Below are positions 2,891-47,247 of a DNA stretch of 64,000 nt, in pieces. Made by a program: the position numbers and the translations under genes. The notes beneath the pieces were generated by a model. That model worked only from the letters and a program-made list of their open reading frames with translations. It was not told the DNA's origin and did not search any database. Source of the DNA: Candidatus Firestoneibacteriota bacterium (lineage in GTDB: Bacteria; Oederibacteriota; D2-FULL-39-29); NCBI GenBank assembly GCA_026388015.1, contig JAPLKO010000053.1:7352-71351 (forward strand), given 5' to 3'. Within the stretch, counting starts at the first letter, position 1, and each line of letters starts with the position of its first letter.

Positions 2891-4714
2891 ATGAAAAAGT
2901 TTTTACTCGTACTGTTGCTTGCGGTTTTAGTTTTTGGTGAGGAAGGAAAAATAAAATCCGAGAATAGTTATTTTCAACTGGATGATGTTGTGGTTACCGG
3001 CTCCAGAGTAGAAAAAGCTCTAAGGGAGGCTCCCGGATCTCTGGTCATTGTCGATGACGCCAGAGTAAAAAATGGCGGAGATAAAAATGTAGGTCTGGCA
3101 ATATCTGATATTCCCGGAGTAGACTCCGGAAAAGTCGGTACCATCGGGCAGACCCAAAGCGTTATGATCCGCGGAATAGGATCGGAAGGTACTTTGGTTC
3201 TGATAAACGGAGTGCGCTTAAACTCCTCCTATCAAGGTTTAGTCGATTTTTCTTCGCTTCCGATAGACAACATAGAAAGGATAGAAGTTTTAAAAGGTCC
3301 GGCCTCTTCGCTTTACGGCGCGGATGCGGCGGGCGGAGTGATAAATATTATTACAAAAAGCCGTGCAGAAAAAAAGGTGATGGAATTTTTAGCCTTGTAC
3401 GGTTCTTTTTGCACCTTAGACCTTAGGGCTTCTTACGCGGATAAAATAGGCGCTCTCTCTTTGAACGTTTCCGGTTCTTATCTCACCGCTTCCGGGCAAA
3501 GAGAGAATAGCGATGTTTTAAGCAAGAATCTAAACCTTTCCCTTGCTTATGACTTTACAAAGAAGCATACTTTAAAAACATTTTTAACTGCCTACAAAAG
3601 TGACAGCGGAGCCCCGGGTTCTCTTTCTTGGCTTACGCCGTTAGATCGGCAGCAGCTTGAAAGATCAAGCGTAGGTTTTGACTATAGCCTCCCTCTTACC
3701 GAGGATTCGGATCTTAAACTAAAGATAAACGGCAATAAAAACATCTTGAATTTCTATCAGCCTGGAGTCGCGACTTTGAGCGAGGAGAGAAATGTTTTTA
3801 TGGAAACCACCTATACTTATGATTTTGGCGGGATAAATATTATTACGGCAGGAGTGAGCGGTAACTACAGTGTAAATGAGCAGAATTTTATGGGTGATCA
3901 TAATGCGAATTCAAAAGCTATTTTTGCCCAGGACATTTTTGACCTTCTCGGCTCCTGGATATTTACGGCTTCCGCCCGTTATGACAGTCATTCGGTTTAC
4001 GGAGACTCTTTCAATCCTATGTTTGCACTTGTTTATAACATCGAAGACGGGGTGCAGATTAAAACATCTTACGGTTCTTCTTTCAGAGCTCCGACATTCT
4101 CCGAGCTTTATGCAACCCCGGCTATGGGCGGTCCGGGAAACCCGGCGCTTGAACCCCAAAAAACTTATTCTTTTGAAGCAGGCTTGAACCTAGAGTTTGG
4201 CCGAACGGCAGTACTAAGAACCACATATTTTAACAACCAGATTAAAAATCTTATAGAGTGGGCCCCTGTAGACCCTACCTACCTAACCTCTTTTGACTGG
4301 ACTCCTTCAAATGTGGGAGAGGCGGAGACCTATGGAGTAGAATCGGAGTTAAAAATAATATTCGCCGAAAACCTTAGTGTTTTTTTCGGACACACTTGGC
4401 TGGTTACTTTGAATAAGGTTACCGACCTGGAGCTTATGTACAGGCCAAAAAACAAAGCAAATCTTGGTATTTCTTATAACCTGTGCGGTCAGAAAATAAA
4501 ATTAGATGCGGAGTATTATGATTTACGGCGGGCGGGTTCGGGTTCCCGGCTTCCCGGCTTTATTACCCTGTGTGCAAAGGCAGAACTGACGATTATAAAA
4601 GAAATAGCGCTGGTTTTTTCGGCTAACAATATTTTGGATATTGCTTATGTTCTAAGAGAAGATTATCCTATGCCGGGGAGAACCTTGAATGCCGGGCTGA
4701 AATTTACTTTTTAA
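2891..4714 (+). CDS. btuB: TonB-dependent outer membrane receptor, BtuB-like cobalamin receptor
   Basis: Signal peptide, a TonB box/plug (DDVVVTGSRVEKALREAPGS) and a C-terminal aromatic residue (ends ...LKFTF). It is positioned in the cob salvage operon. Confidence 0.8.
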   Translation: MKKFLLVLLLAVLVFGEEGKIKSENSYFQLDDVVVTGSRVEKALREAPGSLVIVDDARVKNGGDKNVGLAISDIPGVDSGKVGTIGQTQSVMIRGIGSEGTLVLINGVRLNSSYQGLVDFSSLPIDNIERIEVLKGPASSLYGADAAGGVINIITKSRAEKKVMEFLALYGSFCTLDLRASYADKIGALSLNVSGSYLTASGQRENSDVLSKNLNLSLAYDFTKKHTLKTFLTAYKSDSGAPGSLSWLTPLDRQQLERSSVGFDYSLPLTEDSDLKLKINGNKNILNFYQPGVATLSEERNVFMETTYTYDFGGINIITAGVSGNYSVNEQNFMGDHNANSKAIFAQDIFDLLGSWIFTASARYDSHSVYGDSFNPMFALVYNIEDGVQIKTSYGSSFRAPTFSELYATPAMGGPGNPALEPQKTYSFEAGLNLEFGRTAVLRTTYFNNQIKNLIEWAPVDPTYLTSFDWTPSNVGEAETYGVESELKIIFAENLSVFFGHTWLVTLNKVTDLELMYRPKNKANLGISYNLCGQKIKLDAEYYDLRRAGSGSRLPGFITLCAKAELTIIKEIALVFSANNILDIAYVLREDYPMPGRTLNAGLKFTF

Positions 4715-4913
4715 TAACGGCAGAAAAATAGTAATCTTCAAAATTTAGAAATATAAGCATCGGTCTTTCGGTAAACAAGGCAGCTCTTTTATTAGATGAA
4801 AATAGATTTTGCCTGTCTTCATAGGCGCGCATGCTGCTATTTTTGTCGTGCTTTCCTTGAATCCCGTAATAAAATAGGAACAGACCACGCTTCTTGGTCT
4901 GCTTCAAAAACTG

Positions 4914-4941
4914 TTGACATTCTTCTGCAAAGTGATATACT
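4914..4941 (+). promoter_or_regulatory. Sigma70-like promoter: TTGACA, 16-nt spacer, TATACT
   Basis: Read directly from the sequence, about 65 nt upstream of the decarboxylase ATG. Confidence 0.4.
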
Positions 4942-5004
4942 TTACTACAAAGTTGATATCTAAATAAGAAATATTTATATTGCCCTTTTTGGGCGGGAGC
5001 TGAA

Positions 5005-6540
5005 ATGGATTTTTATGAAAGACAGCTAAAGACCCCGTTGTTTGACGCTGTTGTTAACTACGCCAAGAAGAAAAAAATATCTTTTCACACGCCCGGGCAC
5101 AAACACGGGGACGGTATTCCTAAAAAATTCAGAGATTTTGTTGGCGCCAAGATATTTGATATTGACCTTACGCTCCTTGAAGAAGTAGATTCTCTGCAGG
5201 ATCCGAAAACCGTAATCAAAGAGGCGCAGAAGCTTGCGGCGGAAGCTTACGGCGCAGATTTTTCCTTTTTACTGGTAAACGGAACGACAATAGGCAATCA
5301 GGCTATGATTTTATCCTCCTGCATGCCGGGCGATAAGATAATAATTCCTAGAAATGCCCATAAATCCGTAATAGCGGGAGTTATCTTGAGCGGCGCCATC
5401 CCGGTCTATGTCTATCCACAATTCGACAAAGAACTCGGTATTATTACAAATATTACGGCAAATGACGTCGAGGCTAAACTGAAAGAACACCCGGATGCGA
5501 AAGCAATACTGGTAACCAATCCCACGTATAATGGAATTACAACGGACATAAGAGAGATTGTAAGAATAGCTCATAACCATAAAAAAATAATAATGGTAGA
5601 TGAAGCACACGGCCCGCATTTAAAGTTTCATCCGGACCTGCCCACATCTGCAATGGAAGCAGGCGCCGATATGTGCGTCCAAAGCAGTCATAAAATCATT
5701 TCGGGAATGACGCAGGCTTCGATGCTTTTTGCAAGAAAAAGTGTTGACTTGCTGAAATTAAAAAGAATTCTTCAGCTTCTGCACACGACCTCGCCTTCAT
5801 ATATACTGATGGCTTCACTGGATGTTGCCAGGATGCAAATGGCGACTCAGGGAAGAGAGATTCTTTCAAAAGTAATTGCTTTGGCGGAAGAAGCAAGAAA
5901 AGGAATAAAAGCTCAGGGCATCGGCTGTTTTGGTCGTGAAGTAATCGGGCGTGAAGGTGTTTTTGGTCTTGATGTTACAAAACTCAATATCGACGCAACC
6001 GGGATCGGTAATACCGGCTATGAGGTGCAAAAGCTGCTTAATAAGAAATTCAATATTCAGGTGGAGTTTGCCACCCCGACAAGTTTGTTGGCAATAATTA
6101 CACTGGGAAACACAAAAAATGATATATATAAGCTTAACTATGCGCTTAAGGATATTAAAAAGAATTATGTTAAAAATGAAAAAGTTGTAAATGCCATAAA
6201 AAGTGTTCAGTTTCCAAATATTGTTTCCGATGTGGTTTTGACGCCTCGCGAAGCCTCTTTTTCCATTACCAAAAAAGTTCATTTTAAAGATTCAATCGGC
6301 ATGATAAGCGCCGAAGTGGTTTGCCCGTATCCTCCGGGTATTCCTCTCTTAGCGCCCGGCGAAAGGATTACCAAAGAAGTCTATGATTATGTTATGTTTT
6401 TAAAGGAAATGGGGACTATTATGAACGGTCAGGATGATAAAAATCTCAATTTTATCAAGGTTGTTCAAGAAGCTAAACAACAACACGAATTAACTAATAA
6501 TATACTTGAAGTTAGCAAGATAATAGGGTACAAAGGATAG
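5005..6540 (+). CDS. Orn/Lys/Arg decarboxylase family protein (PLP-dependent). Likely an arginine or lysine decarboxylase.
   Basis: PLP-lysine context SSHKIISGMTQASMLF. Length is 511 aa, typical of the family (B. subtilis SpeA-like). Confidence 0.8.
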   Translation: MDFYERQLKTPLFDAVVNYAKKKKISFHTPGHKHGDGIPKKFRDFVGAKIFDIDLTLLEEVDSLQDPKTVIKEAQKLAAEAYGADFSFLLVNGTTIGNQAMILSSCMPGDKIIIPRNAHKSVIAGVILSGAIPVYVYPQFDKELGIITNITANDVEAKLKEHPDAKAILVTNPTYNGITTDIREIVRIAHNHKKIIMVDEAHGPHLKFHPDLPTSAMEAGADMCVQSSHKIISGMTQASMLFARKSVDLLKLKRILQLLHTTSPSYILMASLDVARMQMATQGREILSKVIALAEEARKGIKAQGIGCFGREVIGREGVFGLDVTKLNIDATGIGNTGYEVQKLLNKKFNIQVEFATPTSLLAIITLGNTKNDIYKLNYALKDIKKNYVKNEKVVNAIKSVQFPNIVSDVVLTPREASFSITKKVHFKDSIGMISAEVVCPYPPGIPLLAPGERITKEVYDYVMFLKEMGTIMNGQDDKNLNFIKVVQEAKQQHELTNNILEVSKIIGYKG

Positions 6541-37233: not shown

Positions 37234-37481
37234 AGTAGATATTAAAAAGATGTACCCTTTCGAAAGAGCATTGCGGCACCCACATCTGGGTTTTTGCAGA
37301 TTTCAGAGGCGGCCAGCACAAAGGCCGGGTAGGGAGTAACTGGAAGGGCGTTTTCACCCGTGACCGTCACCCTAAACTTTTAGCCCATACCCTAAGAAAA
37401 CACTGGAAAGGGAAATAAACCGAGAATTGCAGAGAAATAAGGTTTCTTTACCATATTATAGTAACTCACTATAAAATAAAT

Positions 37482-37727
37482 TTGACAGAGAAGCTTAATT
37501 CGAGACAGAAAAAAGTTATCACCCGTATGTTGGAAGCAGGACCCGGAGGATTTACCGGAGGTTTGACAACAAGAAAATATGCAGGTCTTACAAAAACCAG
37601 CCGTGCTACAGCCTTCAGGGAAATCTCTGATATGCTTGATAAGGGTGTCCTTTATCATCTTCCGGGAAAAGGCCGTAACGTTCATTATGAACTGAAAATT
37701 AATGGAGAGAGTGGAGACAGGTTTTGA
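37482..37727 (+). pseudogene. Remnant encoding only the C-terminal winged-helix of a Fic-family protein
   Basis: The translation NSRQKKVITRMLEAGPGGFTGGLTTRKYAGLTKTSRATAFREISDMLDKGVLYHLPGKGRNVHYEL matches the Fic-protein C-terminal wHTH. The Fic catalytic domain upstream is absent and that frame is closed by stops. Confidence 0.5.
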
Positions 37728-37801
37728 CCAAAAAAATGGACGATTAATCTGACAGGTGAGGTTCTTATTGTCCGAATGTAAATGTAAAAGGAGATTGAAG
37801 A

Positions 37802-38290
37802 ATGTTAATAAGAAAGGCCACAGCAAAAGATGCTCTTGCGATAAGTAAAATATATAATTATTATATTAAGAATACGGTTATTACTTTTTAAACAAAGGTG
37901 GTGCCGCCTGCGGAAATAAGACGAAGAATGAAGATTGGGTCACCTTTAAAGCATCCCTGGATAGTCGGAGTCGTTGATGGGAGAGTGGTCGGATATGCTT
38001 ATTTCGATAAATTCCAGTAAAGAGATACTTACAGGTATTCAGTTGAACTTACGGTATATTTGGACAACATGGTTCGTGGTCAAGGTTACGGAAAAGCGCT
38101 ATACGGCCATCTTATATCGATGCTAAAGAAAACTGATGTTGCGGTAATGATCGGAGGCGTAGCTCTGCCAAATGAAGCAAGTGTCAAACTGCATGAATAT
38201 TTCGGTTTTAAGAAAGTTGCTCACTTTAAGAAAGCTGGTTTTAAACTTAAAAAGTGGATTGACGTGGAGTACTGGGAAAGGATAGTTTGA
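37802..38290 (+). pseudogene. GNAT-family N-acetyltransferase (phosphinothricin-acetyltransferase-like). The reading frame is collinear but interrupted by two in-frame TAA codons at 37889-37891 and about 37997-37999.
   Basis: With the two TAA codons removed, one frame gives a full-length GNAT (MLIRKATAKDALAISKIYNYYIKNTVITF*TKVVPPAEIRRRMKIGSPLKHPWIVGVVDGRVVGYAYFDKFQ*RDTYRYSVELTVYLDNMVRGQGYGKALYGHLISML...). There are no frameshifts. Confidence 0.6.
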
Positions 38291-38440
38291 GGAGTGGAAG
38301 AGAATATATAGCAAGGAAAATAGTGAAAAACTGTTCCTTTTATCTTTGTTGACACAGAAACTCGCCTATGCTATTATTATCTCAGAAAGTAGGCATGCGC
38401 GTTTAAATTAGTTAGTGATAATAATCCGTATTGGAGTGAT

Positions 38441-39760
38441 ATGAGCGCAAAATTTAAAATTAATATCGCTTTTGTTTTCCTCTTTTGTTTTCTTTTCGTT
38501 TTTACCTCCCTGCACCTGTATGCTCAAGAAACAGAAAAAGTAGTTTACAAGTTTAAGTCTACAAACAGGATGGAGCTTGATAAGCTTTTGGCAAAATATA
38601 AAGACAAACCTTGGGAAATTAAGGCTATTTTTGAAAATGATGACGGGCATATCGGTACTTTCGGAGTTGGAGATAGGATAAGAGAAAAACCGGGCGACGG
38701 CTTTTTGCGTTTTAGTATTGGGCCGGTCGGTCTTGACGGTGAGGGATATTTTGTTCAGACAAAAAAATTATCCAATTTCTTGAAAGTTGTTGCTGTCATG
38801 TGTCTTATGGATAAGGGCAAAGTTGTAGAGAAAGTACCACTTACTATCGACTATTGTTGAACGGGCCTTTCCCCGTACGCCGTGCGCGTACCCTCAAACT
38901 TCCCTCCGGGGCGGCACCGGATATCAGTAACCTATAAAGGCAAAGAGGTAAAGGTGCCTGAACGTCATTTTACTTTTGATGTAGAAAATCCTAACTATGG
39001 AAAATCACAGGTAGATTCTGATACTCAATCGCTTCAGAGAAAGCATGCCGGAGCTGTTGTTGAAGTATTTCAGCAGGGGCAGGATTGTACTTCTTTGCCT
39101 GTTAAAAAGTATGAAGGGTGTAAGGATGTTTGGATTAACTCTTTAGGTCTTAACCACGGAAAGAGTATTTATCTTAAAGTCGGGAAGTATAGTGTCGACA
39201 TGAAATCTTTAATCAAATATGATCTCTCCAAACTTCCTAAAAATGCAAAAATAGAGGGCGCATATCTAAAAATGTATTCATTCAATATTTCCTACGCAAA
39301 GGATATGCCGGTTTACCGGATGCTTTCGTCCTGGGGGGCCGGGACCGGGAGCGACTCTATTGTGTTGGATAATCTTGTTTATGAATATGAAAAAGTGAAA
39401 TTTGGAACTGTCCCGAAGGAAGGTGAGTGCAGCTGGACGTACTCTGAAAAACCGGAAAAATGGGAAGGGGTCGGAGTTTCTAAAACCGGAGAAGACCGTG
39501 AAGGTGCGGCGTTGGATAGGGCGCGTGAAATTCCGGAAAAAACAAAAATAGCAGTAAAGGATGAGGCGAGGGGCTGGGTATCTTGGGATGTTACAAAAGC
39601 TGCAAAAGAATGGGTTTCCGATCCGGAGAATAATTTTGGTGTACTTTTAGAAAAAAAACTTGAGGGAAAAGATGTATATACTCAATTCTTATCTTCTGAT
39701 CATTATGATAAACCGTTCCGTCCGAAACTTATAATATTCTATAAGACCGATAAAAAATAG
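38441..39760 (+). CDS. Secreted protein with an N-terminal domain and a DNRLRE-type C-terminal domain. It is encoded by two collinear ORFs joined by a single in-frame TGA at 38858-38860, making it a candidate selenoprotein (...DYC-U-TGLSPY...) or else a nonsense-disrupted gene.
   Basis: ORFs 38441..38860 and 38882..39760 share a frame and only the TGA separates them. The signal peptide is on the first ORF only. No RBS precedes the second ORF. A SECIS-like hairpin lies at 38875-38891. The second half shows DNRLRE-domain-like blocks (IKYDLSKLPKNAKIEGAYLKMYSF; WVSDPENNFGVLLE). Confidence 0.45.
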
Positions 39761-40124: not shown

Positions 40125-41702
40125 ATGAAGATAAAAGTCAATCTATCAAAGCGCAAACGGATAATGCAACGGTCAAAAAAGCTCGGGCATTGTATTTGTG
40201 ACCCGAAAAAGCATTGTCCTTGTGATGTCTTTATGAAAAAAGGGCTTTGTCCCTGCGCGGGTGAACGTCCGGAGCCGACCGATATTTCCAATATTCAGCT
40301 TACCAAACTTGTACATAATGCAGGCTGTGCTTCAAAAATTCCTGCTTCAGACCTTGAAGCTCTTCTTGCAAGGTTACCTGTAGTTTCTGATTCGGCTATT
40401 ATTTCAGGGCTGGCGGCAGGTGATGATGCGGCTGTCTATAAAATAAACGACACAACAAATCTTGTTCAGACCGTAGATGTATTTACCCCCTGTGTTGATG
40501 ATCCGTATGCTTTCGGAAAAATCTGCGCCTGTAACTGCCTTTCGGATATATACGCAATGGGTGGAGTGCCCCGTACGGCTTTAAGTATTCTGGCTTTTCC
40601 GGTTGAAACTCAGGATAAAGAGATAATGTACTTGATGCTAAAAGGCGCTATGGAAGTGCTGCAGGAGGCCGGATGCAGTTTGCTCGGCGGCCACAGTATA
40701 AAAGATGAGGAGATAAAACTTGGTTTTGCAATTACAGGTACTATTGATACGGGAAAATCGGTATCTCTTGAAACAGCAGTTGATGGCGACGTGTTGGTGC
40801 TGACCAAACCTATAGGAACAGGCGTGTTAACATTTGCAAATCAGATAGAGCGCAAAAATGAAAGAGGAGTTGCAGCGGCGGAAATTTCAATGATGACTCT
40901 AAATAAAGCGGCTGCGGAGGCTATGATTGCAACCGGAGTTTCGGCCTGTACGGATATAACCGGGTTTGGTTTGTACGGGCACCTGGCTCGCATGATGCGC
41001 CATTCAAAAACTTCGGCAAGAATATTTACAAACACTCTGCCTGTTTTTGAAGGGGCACTTGAACTTTTAAAGGAAGGGGTGATTCCCGGGGCGAACGAAA
41101 GAAATGCCGAGTTCGTCGGGGAAGATCTTCTTGCCGGAAAAACTGTCAGTGAAGAGTATAAAAATATCGGATTTTCTTCCGAAACATCAGGCGGGTTGCT
41201 TATCTCAGTGCCTGAAAATAAATATAAAACCCTTGCAGCTGAACTAAAAGAGCGTAATGTTACTTTTGCTGTTATCGGAGAGGTCTTTTCCGGCAAGCCG
41301 GGAGTTATAAAACTTGATAATATCAAAGGCAAAGGAGAAGAGATGAAACATCAAAAAAAAGAGGAAAAAGGTTGTTGCTGTTCGGAGTCTGATTGCGCAG
41401 AGGCCGGAATGAGCGCCGGAGGAACGAGTACGGTTCCTGCCTCCATAAAAGCATTTGGCGAGCTTCTTGCTTCTGTAACTGCAACTGGGAAAATTGATAA
41501 ACGCGTAAAAGAGCTGATTGTTTTTTCTCTTGTGGTTCTACAGCGCTGTGAGTCCTGTGTTGATTTGCATTATACAAAAGCCCTCGGTATGGGTATCACA
41601 AAAGAAGAGCTTGACGAGGCTGCCTGGTGCGCTATTTTGATCGGCGGCGCTCCTGTAAAAATGTGCTATGCGACTTTTTTGAGCAAACGTAACAGCAAAT
41701 AG
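40125..41702 (+). CDS. selD: Selenide, water dikinase (selenophosphate synthetase, Cys type) with an N-terminal Cys-rich extension and a C-terminal AhpD/CMD-like CxxCxxxH domain
   Basis: SelD core: LVHNAGCASKIP aligns with the E. coli HGAGCGCKISP region, on an AIR-synthase-like fold. N-terminal extension HCICDPKKHCPCDVFMKKGLCPCAG. C-terminal about 125 aa carry CESCVDLH, the AhpD-type CxxCxxxH. Confidence 0.8.
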   Translation: MKIKVNLSKRKRIMQRSKKLGHCICDPKKHCPCDVFMKKGLCPCAGERPEPTDISNIQLTKLVHNAGCASKIPASDLEALLARLPVVSDSAIISGLAAGDDAAVYKINDTTNLVQTVDVFTPCVDDPYAFGKICACNCLSDIYAMGGVPRTALSILAFPVETQDKEIMYLMLKGAMEVLQEAGCSLLGGHSIKDEEIKLGFAITGTIDTGKSVSLETAVDGDVLVLTKPIGTGVLTFANQIERKNERGVAAAEISMMTLNKAAAEAMIATGVSACTDITGFGLYGHLARMMRHSKTSARIFTNTLPVFEGALELLKEGVIPGANERNAEFVGEDLLAGKTVSEEYKNIGFSSETSGGLLISVPENKYKTLAAELKERNVTFAVIGEVFSGKPGVIKLDNIKGKGEEMKHQKKEEKGCCCSESDCAEAGMSAGGTSTVPASIKAFGELLASVTATGKIDKRVKELIVFSLVVLQRCESCVDLHYTKALGMGITKEELDEAAWCAILIGGAPVKMCYATFLSKRNSK

Positions 41703-41714
41703 GAGAAGAGTTTA

Positions 41715-42947
41715 ATGCCGGAATGTAAAAAGAATAAATGTTGCGCCGACATAAAAAAAGATGAGACTGCCGATTGTCCTATAAATTATTTCCAGAACCA
41801 GGTGGAGAATTCACTGGATTATGCAGAGTCTATGAAAGCTGAAGGAGCCAAAATTGTCGGTATTATGTGTGAATACACTCCGCGTGAGTTAATCATGGCG
41901 GCAGGGGGTGTGCCGGTGTGTCTTTGCGGAGGTTCAGTCGAGATGGTTGAGCCGGCGGAAAAGGTTTTGCCTGCGAATCTATGCCCTTTAATAAAATCCA
42001 CGTTTGGCTTTAGTCTTTTGAAAGAAAACCCTTTTCTGGAAATGTCAGATCTTCTTGTTGCCGAAATCACTTGTGACGGGAAGAAAAAGATGTATGAACT
42101 TTTAGCAAAGATGCATCCTTTGCACGTGCTTGAACTTCCGCAAAAACCGGAGGATAAAGACGCTTTCAAGCACTGGGTGGCGGAACTTAACAAATTGAAA
42201 ACCGCACTGGAACAAAGATTTTCTGTTAAAATCACTGCTAAAAAATTAAAAGAAGCTGTCCGGGTTATGAACAGGGAAAGAAAATTAAAACGAGAACTGG
42301 CAGCTCTTATGAAATCCGATAATCCGCCGCTTACGGGCCGTGAACTTCTTGATATGAAAAGTTTGATCTCCGGAATGCCCGAGGATTTTAAGCAGTATGA
42401 GAAAGCCTTGAAAATGCTTCCGGGTAGAAAGATTAAACCTGCCGCGGGCAAAAGAGTAAGAGTGCTTTTGACCGGAGTCCCTATGCCTCATGGAGCGGAG
42501 AGGGTTATGGATATCCTTGAAGAAAACGGCGGGCTGGTGGTTTGCCAGGAAAACTGTACCGGGTTAAAACCGATTTTAGAGGATGTCAAAGAGAATACGG
42601 GGGATCTCCTTACAGCAATTGCCAAAAAATATTTTAATATACCCTGTTCTGTTATGACGCCGAACAAGAAAAGACTTGTTCAAATCAAACAGCTTGCGGC
42701 AGAATATAAAGCTGATTGCGTTATTGAAGTTATCTGGCGCACCTGTATAACTTATGATGTGGAGTCTGTGCTGGTCAAAAAAATGACGGAAGAGGAGTTA
42801 AACCTCCCATATTTAAAAATTGAAACTGATTACTCGCCTTCTGACACTGCCCGTATAGCGCTAAGAGTGCAGGCATTATATGAGACTGTCAAAGGCAGAA
42901 AGAGTTCCGGAAGATTTGAAAAGAAAAAAACAAGAAAGGGAAGATAA
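41715..42947 (+). CDS. HgdB/BcrC-family protein (2-hydroxyacyl-CoA dehydratase-like / double-cubane-cluster protein type)
   Basis: Cys-rich N-terminus. About 410 aa. It is translationally coupled to a BadF/BadG/BcrA/BcrD-type activase downstream. The family call is by architecture and memory. Confidence 0.55.
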   Translation: MPECKKNKCCADIKKDETADCPINYFQNQVENSLDYAESMKAEGAKIVGIMCEYTPRELIMAAGGVPVCLCGGSVEMVEPAEKVLPANLCPLIKSTFGFSLLKENPFLEMSDLLVAEITCDGKKKMYELLAKMHPLHVLELPQKPEDKDAFKHWVAELNKLKTALEQRFSVKITAKKLKEAVRVMNRERKLKRELAALMKSDNPPLTGRELLDMKSLISGMPEDFKQYEKALKMLPGRKIKPAAGKRVRVLLTGVPMPHGAERVMDILEENGGLVVCQENCTGLKPILEDVKENTGDLLTAIAKKYFNIPCSVMTPNKKRLVQIKQLAAEYKADCVIEVIWRTCITYDVESVLVKKMTEEELNLPYLKIETDYSPSDTARIALRVQALYETVKGRKSSGRFEKKKTRKGR

Positions 42948-43723
42948 TGTATTTTGCCGGAGTGGATGCGGGATCCCGCACTATAAAAGTGGTAATTATT
43001 AAAGGGTCTGATTTAACCGTTTCCGGTTTCGGTATTGTTGATCAAGGGGTAAGACAGGCAGTTAAAGCAAAGGAGCTCCTTGATAAAGTAATCCGTAACT
43101 CAAAAATAAAAATTAAAGATATCGGAGGAATTGTTGCCACGGGTTACGGAAGGAACGCTTTAAGCTGGGCGGACAGTAAAGTAACCGAGATCACCTGTCA
43201 GGCGTATGGAGTAAAGCAGGAAATACCCAATGCTCGTATGATAATTGACATCGGTGGACAAGATAGTAAAATAATTCATCTGGACTCAAATGGTATCGTC
43301 AACGATTTTGTTATGAATGACAGGTGCGCAGCCGGAACAGGCCGTTTTCTTGAAGTTGTTGCGGATAGGCTTGAAATAAAACTTAAGGATATCGGCAGAT
43401 ATTCGGATAAAGCCGCATCTCCTTCGAAAATAAGCAGTATGTGTGTAGTTTTTGCTGAAGCCGAAATAGTGGGCCTTCTTGCTGCTGAAGAAGCCCCGGA
43501 AAATATTTTGGCCGGGGTTCAAAACTCTATTGCAAAACGTATATGCATTATGGCCGGTTCAGGTTTTAAAGGGCCGGTTGTTTTTACCGGAGGCGTTGCG
43601 CTTCTTCCCGGCATGAAAAAAGCGCTTCAGGACTGTTTGGAGCATTCTATAAACGTTGTAAAGACTCCGCAATTTACCGGAGCTTTTGGCGCGGCCTTGC
43701 TGGCGGCAAAAGATAAATATTAA
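42947..43723 (+). CDS. BadF/BadG/BcrA/BcrD-family ATPase (HgdC-like activase / CoA-substrate-specific enzyme activase)
   Basis: N-terminal YFAGVDAGSRTIKVVII actin-fold phosphate-1 motif. Length is 258 aa. Its start overlaps the upstream stop (TAATG). Confidence 0.7.
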   Translation: MYFAGVDAGSRTIKVVIIKGSDLTVSGFGIVDQGVRQAVKAKELLDKVIRNSKIKIKDIGGIVATGYGRNALSWADSKVTEITCQAYGVKQEIPNARMIIDIGGQDSKIIHLDSNGIVNDFVMNDRCAAGTGRFLEVVADRLEIKLKDIGRYSDKAASPSKISSMCVVFAEAEIVGLLAAEEAPENILAGVQNSIAKRICIMAGSGFKGPVVFTGGVALLPGMKKALQDCLEHSINVVKTPQFTGAFGAALLAAKDKY

Positions 43724-43831
43724 GCAGTTAATAAAAAATAGTATATAATATATCTGTTATCATAGAAAAAGCCTTGTTGTAATTTAAGCAATTGTGAAAT
43801 ATTTCTAAATAGATTATTAGGGAGGTGTTTA

Positions 43832-45316
43832 GTGCCTGGTGACGCTCGCAGTCTTCAAAACTGTCGCGGGACTGATAAGGTTCCGGGTGGGTTCAATTCC
43901 CATACACCTCCGCCAATTTCAGAGTTACTGAAAAAGATCCCTTCCGTTTCGCTGCTTTTGGAAACATTGGAACTCCAAAAGTTGTCAAAAAGATTCGGCG
44001 GCGAGATACTTAAATCGGAGCTTCGCCTGCTTCTTGAAGAGTTAAGGAATAAGATTAAAAACGGTAAAAGCTGCGGTATTCCGGAAATAAATAAAATAAC
44101 GGAACAGCTCGAGACCCGCCTGACACGTTTTACCTCTCCCGAAGGAAGAAGAGCTATTAATGCTACAGGAATACTACTCCATACGGGACTTGGTCGTTCA
44201 CCTTTATGCAGTGAAGCCCTCGAAGCGCTTGCAGGAATGGGGACGTACTCTCTTTTACAAGCTGACCTTGCGTCGGGAAAACGCTCGTTGCGCGAGGAAA
44301 AAATAGAAAGGATGCTTATCCGGCTGACCGGATGTGAAGCCGCAACCGTAGTAAATAATAATGCGGCGGCTACCATGCTCATTTTAAATACCTTAGCGGC
44401 CGGAAAAAAAGTTATTTTAAGCCGGGGCCAGCTTATTGAAATAGGCGGAGAGTTCCGCATGCCGGATGTGATGGCGAGAAGTTCCGTCATTATGCAGGAG
44501 ATCGGGACCACTAACCGGACGCACCTTAAGGATTACGAGAAGGCTATTGATGAAAATACGGGCGCTCTTTTACACGTGCATACTTCGAATTTCCGTGTAC
44601 GGGGCTTTTCCGGAACTCCGGACATTAAAGAACTTTGCAGTTTAGCAAAAAAATATAATCTTCCGGTAATTGACGATTTAGGGAGCGGAGCTCTGGTACC
44701 GCTTTCAAGATACGGCATTACAGATGAGCCTCTGGTTTCTGATTCGATAAAGGCCGGGAGTTCCGTAATATGTTTTAGCGGAGATAAGCTTATCAACGGA
44801 CCCCAGGCCGGAATAATTTGCGGGAAAAAAGAGTTTATTCAAAACATCAGAAAAAATCCGTTTGCCCGGATGTTTCGTGTTTGTAAGCTTACGCTTGCGG
44901 CGCTCGAGGCAACACTTGTGCATTTTGTAAACGATACACAGGGTGAAGCGCTTCCATTTTATAAGATGTTGACGATCTCTGCTCAAAATCTCGAGAAAAA
45001 AGCAAAACTGCTTGCTGATTTGGCCGGAAAGATTAAAGGGGTTAAAGCAAAAATAATAGATGATGTGTCTTATGTCGGCAGCGGTTCACTCCCGGATGAA
45101 GGAATACCGACGAAGGTTGTGTGTGTCAGCTTTGATAACGCAAACAAAAGTAAAAAGAGTATAGAAGAAATTGCAATATGCCTGAGGCTCGGAGTTCCGT
45201 CGGTTTTTTGCAGAGTAAAAGATGATGCGCTGTATTTTGATATGCGGACGTTATTTGACAAAGAGGAGAGGGAAATAGCAGAAGCATTAAGCAGTGTTAT
45301 GAAGGGTTGCTCCTGA
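43832..45316 (+). CDS. selA: L-seryl-tRNA(Sec) selenium transferase, with a GTG start
   Basis: PLP-lysine region CFSGDKLINGPQAGIICGKKEF. N-terminal INATGILLHTGLGRS. Confidence 0.85.
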   Translation: MPGDARSLQNCRGTDKVPGGFNSHTPPPISELLKKIPSVSLLLETLELQKLSKRFGGEILKSELRLLLEELRNKIKNGKSCGIPEINKITEQLETRLTRFTSPEGRRAINATGILLHTGLGRSPLCSEALEALAGMGTYSLLQADLASGKRSLREEKIERMLIRLTGCEAATVVNNNAAATMLILNTLAAGKKVILSRGQLIEIGGEFRMPDVMARSSVIMQEIGTTNRTHLKDYEKAIDENTGALLHVHTSNFRVRGFSGTPDIKELCSLAKKYNLPVIDDLGSGALVPLSRYGITDEPLVSDSIKAGSSVICFSGDKLINGPQAGIICGKKEFIQNIRKNPFARMFRVCKLTLAALEATLVHFVNDTQGEALPFYKMLTISAQNLEKKAKLLADLAGKIKGVKAKIIDDVSYVGSGSLPDEGIPTKVVCVSFDNANKSKKSIEEIAICLRLGVPSVFCRVKDDALYFDMRTLFDKEEREIAEALSSVMKGCS

Positions 45317-47247
45317 TGCCGGAGTATAAAATCAAAACCCCGGAAATTATACCGGTTATGATAGGTACAGCCGGTCATGTTGATCACGGTAAAACAGCTC
45401 TTGTTCGACTGCTTACGGGTTGCGAGACGGATATCCTGCCGGAAGAAAAAAAAAGAGGAATGAGCATAGACTTGGGGTTCGCGCCGTTTTTGCTGGACGA
45501 TAACAGGATGGCGGGGATTATCGATGTGCCCGGTCATGAAGATTTTATCAGGAACATGATTGCTGGCGCCTCATCCATAGATGTTCTTATTCTTATTATT
45601 GCGGCGGATGACGGGGTGATGCCCCAGACGATAGAACACCTGAAGATAATGAGCTTGCTTCAAACTCCTGAGGTTATGGCCGTAATTACCAAGATAGATA
45701 TAGTGGGTAAAGAGCGGCAGCAGGAAGTAAGTAACCAGGTTCATGAATTACTCAAAGAGTACGGTTTTTCCGGAGTTCCTGTTATTTTGGAATCGAATAT
45801 AACGGGGGAGGGGCTCGGAGAGGTCAGAGAAGAGGTAAATAAGCTGGTGTGCCGTATTCAGCGTCCAAAGGAGACAAAACCTTTCAGGATGAATATCGAA
45901 AGAGTTTTTTCGGTGAAAGGTTACGGTACGGTGGTTACGGGTATTCCTCTTTCAGGAAAATGCGTTATAGATGAGGAACTGGAGCTCTTGCCGGGTCCTC
46001 ATAGCGTAATCTGCCGCTCTATCCAGAAGTACAGTGTGGATTCTTCCGATGCGACTGCTCATGCCTGCTCAGCTATTAATCTGAGAGCGGCAAAACTACC
46101 TGAGATTGAACGCGGGATGACGCTCGCTTCGACCGGAGTCTATAGGAAAACTGTTTCAGCGGTTTTAAGTATAAAAAATGTTCATGAGTCGTTGCCGCTT
46201 AAACGGCGACAGGAACTGCGTTTTTGTTGCGGGACTTCCAACAGAATAGTTTTGAGTGTGTTGCTTGGAAAAAATGAAGTTTTGTCTCCGGGAGAGAATG
46301 GTTTTATACAGATAAAACTTTCCGAACCTGTCGTTTTAGCGGCCGGCGACAGGTTTATTTTAAGAACTCTCTCTCCTTCTGCGACAGTAGCAGGAGGCGT
46401 GGTTCTTTCTGCAAATCCTCCGGAAGGGAAGAAAAAAGCAAAAGTTGACACCGTTAAACTGGAAAAGGCGCGCATAGCTGCAGAGCAAGGCGACTATTTT
46501 TTTAGTGAAATTATAGCAGGTGGTTTTTCCGTGATAAACAAAAATGAGCTTGCTTTTCTTGTTCAGGAAGACGAAGAAAGCATAAAAATTGCAATTGAGG
46601 AGAAGATTAAAGCCGGCGTACTTATACCTGCCGGTAAAACACAGTGGATTATCAAAGACCGTATAGTTGAACTTGAAGAAAAATTAAGATTCTTGTTAAC
46701 GGCATATCACAAAGAAAATAAGATTTCTCGCGGCATGCCTTTTGCCGGGGTGTGCTCTTTTTTAGGGCTGGATAAAGAAAGCTATCCGGATTTGAGTAAA
46801 ATATTTGCCGGAAGCGGAGTTCTTTCGGTGCAAAGTGACTGTGTTTCTTTGAAAAGTTTTGCCGTTGAAATGACCGCAAAACAAAAGAATATCAGGGAAA
46901 AGATTATAGGGATGCTTTCGAAAGCCGAGAACTCCGCTGTAGCGCTCAATACTATTGAAGCTGAACTTAAAGTTGATATGCCTGAACTCAGGATTGTTAT
47001 GCGTTTTTTAACAGAAGAAGGGGTGATATATACTCTGGATAAATATGTAATTTTTTCTAAGGTAGTTATTAACGCTCTGGATAAGTTAAAGGAGCATTTT
47101 AAAAACGAAAGTACGGTTGAGTTGAGCCATTTTAGGGAGCTGACCGGACTTTCCAGGAATGTAGCCGTACCTGTTCTCGAATATTTTGATTCAAAAGGTA
47201 TAACGTGTCGAGAGGGAAAAGCTCGCAGGCTTGCAAATAAGAGTTAA
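45307..47247 (+). CDS. selB: Selenocysteine-specific translation elongation factor
   Basis: GTPase G1 motif GTAGHVDHGKT and G3 motif DVPGHE. Long C-terminal winged-helix extension; 646 aa. It overlaps the selA 3' end by 10 nt. Confidence 0.88.
   Translation: MLLMPEYKIKTPEIIPVMIGTAGHVDHGKTALVRLLTGCETDILPEEKKRGMSIDLGFAPFLLDDNRMAGIIDVPGHEDFIRNMIAGASSIDVLILIIAADDGVMPQTIEHLKIMSLLQTPEVMAVITKIDIVGKERQQEVSNQVHELLKEYGFSGVPVILESNITGEGLGEVREEVNKLVCRIQRPKETKPFRMNIERVFSVKGYGTVVTGIPLSGKCVIDEELELLPGPHSVICRSIQKYSVDSSDATAHACSAINLRAAKLPEIERGMTLASTGVYRKTVSAVLSIKNVHESLPLKRRQELRFCCGTSNRIVLSVLLGKNEVLSPGENGFIQIKLSEPVVLAAGDRFILRTLSPSATVAGGVVLSANPPEGKKKAKVDTVKLEKARIAAEQGDYFFSEIIAGGFSVINKNELAFLVQEDEESIKIAIEEKIKAGVLIPAGKTQWIIKDRIVELEEKLRFLLTAYHKENKISRGMPFAGVCSFLGLDKESYPDLSKIFAGSGVLSVQSDCVSLKSFAVEMTAKQKNIREKIIGMLSKAENSAVALNTIEAELKVDMPELRIVMRFLTEEGVIYTLDKYVIFSKVVINALDKLKEHFKNESTVELSHFRELTGLSRNVAVPVLEYFDSKGITCREGKARRLANKS

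Follow-up and report, generated by a model that had tools for sequence, protein, structure and literature searches.

Two collinear open reading frames (ORFs) in a 64,000-nucleotide stretch of Candidatus Firestoneibacteriota bacterium (contig JAPLKO010000053.1, positions 7,352 to 71,351; hereafter the window) raise the question of whether they are translated into two proteins or one. ORF 38441-38860 (139 aa) and ORF 38882-39760 have a common frame, the sole stop codon between them is the TGA at 38858-38860, and the codon directly 5' of this TGA is TGT (Cys139), giving a junction that reads ...PLTIDYC-[TGA]-TGLSPYAVRVPSNFPPGRH. An earlier note on this DNA had read the pair as a candidate secreted selenoprotein, and the arrangement that it described was confirmed from the sequence and the ORF listing. 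We consider it highly probable that 38441-39760 (plus strand, as are the gene's other features and the sel genes described below) is one gene encoding an exported selenoprotein of 439 residues, followed by its stop codon, with the in-frame UGA read as selenocysteine (Sec) at position 140. Comparative sequence analysis shows the single frame, the conserved UGA, the correspondence between Sec and Cys in homologs and a Sec insertion sequence (SECIS), in a genome that has the Sec machinery; membrane export we infer from the N-terminal signal peptide.

Conservation of the UGA codon and its cysteine counterparts

The arrangement is unlikely to be due to chance because it is the only TGA-joined pair of ORFs of at least 80 codons on the coding (plus) strand of the window, TGA is the rarest stop codon there (5 of 32 genes, against 20 of 32 for TAA), and the 60 nt 3' of the TGA have a guanine plus cytosine (GC) content of 72%, compared with 27-57% across the remaining gene. 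The GC content of the window is 42%. Word-index homology searches, with the fused protein and with a family profile, yielded hardly any matches other than the same species and the uninterrupted homolog P0143, and the family came to light only when 1.84 billion cluster representatives were searched exhaustively with HMMER. In that search, 15 clusters of 268-358 aa start at query residues 144-173, several downstream-only clusters open inside the 'intergenic' peptide (MPYAVSVPS, MLPYAVRVPS, VRVPS), two clusters restricted to the N-terminal domain (P0002 and P0027) terminate exactly at ...DYC and ...GYC, and four full-length proteins (P0056, P0091, P0051 and P0143) bridge the junction. Such a distribution is the pattern expected of a mis-called selenoprotein family. 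A search for related loci with a 7-sequence alignment returned one genome locus and three metagenome loci.

Ten further loci with DNA, representing nine distinct homologs, could be compared with the window (L003, L004, L011, L006, L008, L012, L013, L014, L015 and L016; L004 is the same gene as L005 and L010, and L006 the same as L007). L008, from the metagenome-assembled genome (MAG) Planctomycetota bacterium H5_PLA8, was the sole match among GTDB species representatives. The nine homologs share ~30-50% amino acid identity with the window protein, and all ten loci consist of a leader-bearing N-domain ORF that ends in C-TGA or C-x-TGA and is followed by an in-frame ORF for a DNRLRE domain. In each of the 11 loci with DNA (window included) the stop at the junction is a TGA that occupies one and the same alignment column and frame, and in two loci without DNA the called genes are in frame and likewise 21 nt apart. 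A near-identical strain (L001/L002), which differs by a few single-nucleotide polymorphisms in the leader and upstream region, also retains the TGA and the hairpin described below. No conserved start codon or ribosome-binding site for the downstream part was found across the 10 further loci, and the called downstream starts vary by locus, being ATG, TTG or GTG at differing codons. With U denoting Sec, the junction of the window reads DYC-U-TGLSPYAVRVPS, and those of the homologs read GFC-U-GGLLPYAVRVPS, GAC-U-GGMMPYAVSVPS, GAC-U-GGTMPYAVSVNS, GAC-U-SGLLPYTVRVPS, GFC-U-GGLTPYAVRVPS, SGC-U-FGTYAGAVSIPT, GCG-U-DGIYWYTVSVPS, GAC-U-SGTQPYAVSVTS and SNC-U-GGYIPYSVRVPS. Cys stands at position -1 in nine of the 11 Sec loci with DNA, the exceptions being L014, with Cys at -2 (C-G-U), and a paralog with T-U.

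The expectation of the earlier note that homologs should carry Sec or Cys at this site was borne out by the TGA of the ten further loci and by five uninterrupted homologs with Cys at the TGA position, in the motifs CCC (L009), CTC (P0056), CATC (P0091), CAC (P0051) and CGC (P0143). L009, 47% identical to the window in the junction region, is an uninterrupted open frame of 437 codons (433 aa from the first Met) that reads ...FSKGCCCGGLVPYDARVPS... and contains KGCCCGG; the contexts in the other Cys-forms are GSCTCWG, SCATCAG, GGCACGG and GGCGCAG. MAFFT aligned U to the second Cys of CxC, a register confirmed by L014, which naturally has C-G-U. In a 12-sequence full-length alignment the Sec column is invariantly Cys or Sec, and G142 and H159 are invariant too. 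G142, located between the TGA and the first possible downstream start, is conserved in Cys-forms, in which the segment is certainly translated. The family seems to be associated with the Planctomycetes-Verrucomicrobia-Chlamydiae group (PVC) and Planctomycetota and to be mostly of the Sec form; among detectable members Sec-forms outnumber Cys-forms (~15 versus 5 clusters), which suggests that the selenol is needed for function and is not an optional upgrade.

A second TGA-joined pair was observed in L013 (JGI 3300041075; 3888-6125, composed of 3888-4736 and 4803-6125), directly downstream of the family member. Its fused product is collinear with the Cys-form P0051 (BLASTP 4e-24), with the TGA falling on the second Cys of CAC; its motif is HET-U-GG, and 27 nt past the UGA it has a different hairpin, with a stem of 9 bp and the loop GUUA. 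By its sequence this pair is probably the Sec-form of a longer P0051/P0143 sister subfamily, and its T-U motif suggests that the neighbouring Cys is dispensable. The C-terminal ...GGCG of a 440-aa gene in L013 was also considered as a Sec site and rejected, the stop codon that follows it being TAG.

The hairpin downstream of the UGA

A hairpin is formed at 38875-38891 by the arms GTACGC (38875-38880) and GCGTAC (38886-38891), which enclose the loop CGUGC (38881-38885; CGTGC in the DNA); the TGA is separated from the stem by 14 nt and from the loop by 20 nt. The 6-bp hairpin with a GU-containing loop reported in the earlier note is hence present, its stem beginning at the 15th nt after the TGA. 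RNAfold predicted it in every sub-window tried, with -8.0 kcal/mol for the bare element and -11.4 kcal/mol with 43 nt of context. Bacterial SECIS (bSECIS) elements are described as having an apical loop of 3-9 nt on an upper stem of 4-16 bp, a G within the first two loop positions that is usually followed by G or U, a distance of 16-37 nt from the UGA to the apical loop, and a minimum free energy of -7.5 kcal/mol or lower (PMC13188914 section 5/Fig. 2A legend). The window element lies within all four of these constraints, with a 5-nt loop on a 6-bp stem, G-U at loop positions 2-3, a spacing of 20 nt and -8.0 kcal/mol, and the placement of a stem-loop in the 16-37 nt interval, anticipated in the earlier note, holds with conservation and compensatory changes. 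Loop and stem sizes (5 nt and 6 bp) are within the limits in all 11 TGA-form sequences, the UGA-to-loop distance is 20 nt in every member, and the eight hairpins evaluated have energies of -6.0 to -8.4 kcal/mol.

The 11 TGA-form sequences align without gaps, and in 11 of 11 the 6-bp stem begins 14 nt after the UGA. All 66 stem cells (6 pairs in 11 sequences) are standard pairs, and seven of them, distributed over four of the six pairs and six sequences, carry double-sided compensatory changes: G:C to U:A in L006 and L015, G:C to A:U in L008 and L014, G:C to U:A in L016, and both U:A to G:C and C:G to U:A in L013. This pairing and covariation was matched by none of 500 shuffles, and sliding the 3' arm by 1-3 columns reduced pairing to 8-70%. 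The loop is CGUG[CA] or GGUCC in the TGA-forms, with invariant G and U columns (G38882 and U38883 in the window). The peptide encoded by the hairpin, PYAV[RS]V, is conserved in TGA-forms only, and the corresponding stretch of the Cys-form L009 has two mismatches, lacks the loop GU and reaches only -2.2 kcal/mol. The decay of the hairpin in L009 and the restriction of the peptide to TGA-forms therefore argue for a constraint on the RNA that is tied to the UGA. A scan of the window against Rfam at gathering thresholds returned two tRNAs only and no match to a SECIS model.

Gene anatomy, decoding machinery and competing readings

The coding sequence, delimited by its frame, by the conserved architecture of the ten further loci and by the full-length Cys homologs, is preceded by a Shine-Dalgarno-like GGAG read from the sequence (38433-38436, 4 nt 5' of ATG 38441) and by a candidate sigma-70-like promoter at 38349-38377 (TTGACA-17 nt-TATTAT with an upstream TG), a consensus match at 11 of 12 positions and the best of the region; no comparable promoter-like site occurs between the TGA and the downstream part. 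The N-terminus, MSAKFKINIAFVFLFCFLFVFTSLHLYA followed by QE, is signal-peptide-like. Its leader, MSAKFK-INIAFVFLFCFLFVFTSL-HLYA followed by QE, combines a positively charged n-region with a hydrophobic core of 18 residues and an AXA-like site, and is modelled by AlphaFold as a helix at residues 6-30; the predicted Sec-type signal peptide spans residues 1-28 (38441-38524), with cleavage between LYA and QE. Similar hydrophobic leaders open all homologs. Lipoprotein export was rejected, as there is no convincing lipobox. Residues 29-138 (38525-38854), a segment covered by no Pfam or NCBIfam family, would form the N-terminal part of an Ig/filamin/macroglobulin-like β-sandwich, which leads to the codons of Cys139 (38855-38857) and Sec140 (38858-38860). 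The remainder of the sandwich and a linker, assigned from alignments and AlphaFold, occupy residues 141-205 (38861-39055) and include G142, H159 and the motif FTFDVENPxYGK, and a DNRLRE/CBM96-like jelly-roll domain extends over approximately residues 206-439 (39056-39757). Upstream of the gene, 37480-38290 contains short gene remnants only, among them an 81-aa ORF (37482-37727) similar to a winged-helix tail and, at 38060-38290, a GNAT fragment of 76 aa (PF13420 in L001), and is possibly a decayed region.

The selenium genes that the earlier note had seen downstream were confirmed, and a tRNA-Sec that had escaped it was found within the window. This selC gene (43821-43915, anticodon UCA) was identified with ARAGORN and by a match to Rfam RF01852 (75.1 bits; gathering score, 47), and it lies directly 5' of selA. 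The gene selD (40125-41702), part of the decoding machinery and not of the selenoprotein gene, starts 364 nt past the stop at 39760 and encodes a Cys-type selenophosphate synthetase fused to a CMD/AhpD domain (TIGR00476, 336.6 bits; AIRS, AIRS_C and CMD domains). The enzyme is of the Cys type (NAGCASK), its N-terminal extension is rich in Cys (CICDPKKHCPCD...CPC) and its C-terminal CMD/AhpD fusion domain carries a CESC motif. The selA-like ORF (43832-45316) is named after the earlier note and by its position, and is read from its ORF and translation; its listed GTG start at 43832 overlaps the tRNA-Sec gene, and the true start is probably further downstream. The selB-like ORF (45307-47247, 646 aa), read likewise from its translation, has a GTPase N-terminus with the G-domain motif GHVDHGKT. 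Between selD and the selC-selA-selB group, 41715-43723 encodes a 2-hydroxyacyl-CoA-dehydratase D-component-like protein (HGD-D, 345 bits) and a BcrAD/BadFG-type activase, an insertion unusual for a sel cluster, in an order repeated in strain L001. All four sel genes are located at most 9 kb from 38441-39760. No Sec-machinery gene or tRNA-Sec was found beside the family gene in the fetched flanks of the other loci; the proximity of selD is regarded as incidental, and a functional link between the gene and the adjacent sel operon was rejected, the adjacency being absent from all other loci.

In the mechanism that we propose, translation would proceed from ATG 38441 up to the UGA at 38858-38860, where SelB-GTP with Sec-tRNA(Sec) would be tethered by the hairpin at 38875-38891 and would deliver selenocysteine in place of termination. 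Translation would then continue into the remainder of the β-sandwich and the C-terminal DNRLRE/CBM96-type jelly-roll, and the signal peptide would route the protein through the cytoplasmic membrane.

In bacteria, Sec insertion is in competition with release factor 2 (RF2) and is often inefficient. Partial decoding of the UGA could accordingly yield two outputs, with selenium supply toggling between a secreted N-fragment of 111 residues and the full-length protein, both of them important, and the truncated product would keep its signal peptide. Truncation, however, would precede the last predicted strands of the sandwich (E157-166 and E171-182, both past the UGA), making it unlikely that the fragment folds, and the data do not require a dual output. 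We regard it as improbable, and as an overlay compatible with the single-gene reading.

Somewhat less probable still are two independent genes of an operon, a secreted N-domain protein ending at the TGA and a cytoplasmic DNRLRE protein initiated at GTG 38882 or GTG 38954, between which the hairpin would act as an intercistronic stability or coupling element. Gene callers annotate every locus in this way, TGA is an ordinary stop in the window genome (5 of 32 genes), and GTG 38954, the called start of the 268-aa protein P0001, is preceded by AAGAGG (AAGAGG-N5-GTG, 38941-38956) in a manner that resembles a ribosome-binding site and start. The statement in the earlier note that the downstream ORF lacks a ribosome-binding site stands for GTG 38882; the RBS-like sequence at GTG 38954 falls inside a conserved K/E-rich coding peptide (KEVKVPER). 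Against two genes, the two parts are in frame and separated by TGA in all 11 loci with DNA, the uninterrupted Cys-forms place a Cys exactly on the TGA column, and the protein sequence is conserved between the TGA and any possible start, even in Cys-forms (G142). Moreover, the called starts differ among loci, the downstream part has no signal peptide despite its extracellular type of domain, and the β-sandwich would be divided over two polypeptides.

A recent nonsense mutation or a sequencing error in a pseudogene of a Cys-type ancestor, the alternative raised in the earlier note, would require only one base change (TGT or TGC to TGA). It is effectively refuted, since the TGA is kept in a second strain and in nine homologs at ~30-50% identity (10 loci, which come from a MAG and from different metagenomes), the downstream ORF remains intact, evidently under purifying selection, and a co-evolving hairpin accompanies the TGA in TGA-forms only. 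Genome-wide reassignment of UGA to Trp or Gly (codes 4 or 25) is refuted by the occurrence of one long in-frame TGA junction only on the coding strand of the 64 kb, by the five of 32 ordinary genes that end in TGA, and by the presence of a complete Sec system with a SECIS.

Several points nevertheless weigh against the interpretation of 38441-39760 as a single selenoprotein gene. The energy of the hairpin in single-sequence folding is unremarkable for a GC-rich patch when compared with shuffles (z of -0.3 to -1.2), and because this stability is ordinary the evidence for the element is its conservation and not its folding energy; the bare hairpins of L006 (-6.0 kcal/mol) and L008 (-6.5 kcal/mol) are weaker than the -7.5 kcal/mol of the bSECIS description. 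The hairpin lies within coding sequence, and part of its conservation could be at the protein level. AAGAGG with GTG 38954 could in principle serve as an independent start for a downstream protein. The Sec machinery was checked for the window genome only, and the signal peptides of the window protein and of the homologs were judged by eye.

Fold, possible function and relation to known selenoproteins

The downstream part was recognized as a DNRLRE domain (NF033679, 77.1 bits, cutoff 34; CBM96 PF24517, 35.4 bits, cutoff 26), in line with the earlier note, and it has a jelly-roll fold like that of solved CBM96 carbohydrate-binding modules (CBMs), with matches to chondroitin-sulfate-binding and alginate-binding modules (PDB 8wab and 7vbo, respectively). 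Pfam and NCBIfam r20 have no model for the N-domain or the junction of either Sec-forms or Cys-forms and recognized the generic DNRLRE_dom only. From a shallow alignment, AlphaFold returned a model with a mean predicted local distance difference test score (pLDDT) of 77 and a predicted template modelling score of 0.76, in which the C-domain is good and the N-terminal ~180 residues form an Ig/filamin/macroglobulin-like sandwich of low-to-moderate confidence. The surroundings of the Sec are not those of a thioredoxin-fold oxidoreductase, as they are predicted to be a β-sandwich with the motif C-U or C-x-U; a separate, appended thioredoxin domain was found only in the Cys-form P0143. This protein (676 aa, Logan) is extended by a further domain at the N-terminus and, at the C-terminus, by a Thioredoxin_7/DsbD-gamma-like domain with a CGVC motif, a hint that a periplasmic reductant serves the CxC/CU site. 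The genes neighbouring the family in L004/L005, L006/L007, L014, L015 and the P0027 locus are often carbohydrate-related (MR_MLE, Gluconate_2-dh3, beta-helix, GH95, alpha-amylase and GH10).

At the site, Cys and Sec are vicinal or nearly so, and Gly follows the pair. Considering this C/U-Gly motif, the thioredoxin-like domain of P0143, the CBM matches and the carbohydrate-active neighbours, we would guess at an exported redox site of the selenol/thiol type, or a site for soft metals, carried by a glycan-binding scaffold. Outside the cell, redox chemistry or the binding of soft metals would take place at the [C]-U-x-G loop (CxC/CxxC in Cys-forms), and the scaffold that bears this loop has a C-terminal domain similar to modules that bind acidic polysaccharides. 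A vicinal C-U redox pair, as put forward in the earlier note, is a reasonable reading, not a proven one, and a role specifically in redox chemistry is possible without being the option we would favour. More doubtful is the wider scenario in which Sec is the predominant and possibly ancestral form and the protein, exported via the Sec translocon, performs selenium-dependent chemistry at extracellular acidic polysaccharides in Planctomycetota-like bacteria. Three observations count against these functional proposals: the Cys that precedes Sec as TGT in the window is not universal in the family (C-G-U in L014, T-U in the L013 paralog), that paralog does not retain H159, and the Sec loop (residues 137-145) has a pLDDT below 50, the model of the N-domain and Sec loop being of low confidence.

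FdnG and the [NiFeSe] hydrogenase are periplasmic selenoproteins, and the C-terminus of mammalian thioredoxin reductase reads GCUG. No DNRLRE, CBM96 or disaggregatase-repeat family is among the 119 families of prokaryotic selenoproteins catalogued in May 2026 (PMC13188914 Table 1). The nine new families of deep-Sep all differ from the family described here, NCBIfam r20 has no model for a DNRLRE selenoprotein family (the catalogue check comprised the review's Table 1, NCBIfam and Pfam), and no paper in the literature collection searched combined DNRLRE with selenoprotein. The family is thus previously uncatalogued, and its novelty is that of a family within a known mechanism, with the paradigm unchanged. 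The claim in the earlier note that an extracellular DNRLRE-type selenoprotein was undescribed holds for the family and not for exported selenoproteins as a class, which have already been predicted: PMC13188914 Table 1 includes DsbA-like and DsbG-like proteins, a thiol:disulfide interchange protein, a TonB-dependent receptor of the FCYXU type, an MtrB/PioB-like barrel and the ExtKL cytochrome. With these the window protein shares a Sec outside the cytoplasm, the Dsb-like ones being thiol/selenol redox proteins, but where the known examples are thioredoxin-fold proteins, barrels, cytochromes or Tat-exported metalloenzymes, it combines Ig-like and CBM-like domains behind a Sec-type leader.

The gene follows the intragenic-bSECIS arrangement of which E. 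coli fdhF is the prototype (model of Zhang & Gladyshev, per PMC13188914), with an in-frame UGA, a stem-loop in the coding sequence just downstream, G then U near the 5' side of the loop, 20 nt between UGA and loop, Cys homologs, and selA, selB, selC and selD in the genome. It differs from fdhF in that the protein is unrelated to formate dehydrogenase or to any catalogued family, and from prototype bSECIS elements in its very short and simple 6-bp/5-nt hairpin with strictly fixed spacing. The catalogue also includes families with CU motifs, namely SaoL (MerB-like), HgcA, SaoC, KCU-star and MbdU (Haft & Gwadz 2023; PMC13188914 Table 1). These CU-dipeptide proteins and thioredoxin reductase share with the window protein a vicinal C-U followed by Gly (x-C-U-G-G in the window), and for their CU motifs the formation of a selenenylsulfide, or the binding of soft metals or organometals, is assumed. 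Unlike them, the window family carries its Sec in a β-sandwich loop behind a signal peptide, and not in a MerB-like protein, a corrinoid protein or a flavoenzyme tail, and its partner Cys shifts (C-U or C-x-U) or is absent (T-U). Known DNRLRE/CBM96 domains (for instance 8wab and 7vbo) are appended to lyases or large surface proteins, none of them reported with Sec, whereas the DNRLRE domain of the window follows a Sec-bearing Ig-like domain with no recognisable catalytic domain.

Annotation systematically splits bacterial selenoproteins into two truncated genes, and the known uses of selenium widen with each new family. Genes of this family can be re-annotated in metagenomes by means of the pattern [C]-TGA-N14-hairpin(CGUGN), and their very simple, fixed-register SECIS with natural compensatory mutants offers a clean model for SelB recognition outside Proteobacteria. 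The family stems from poorly studied polysaccharide-degrading lineages, and its Sec, behind a signal peptide, sits in a fold context that is not thioredoxin-like, an Ig-like β-sandwich joined to a CBM96/DNRLRE module. If the proposed function is true, the family would bring a selenol-based redox or lytic activity, or the capture of soft metals or chalcogens, to the cell surface, and would give Sec a role beyond its usual repertoire of thioredoxin-fold proteins and metalloenzymes.

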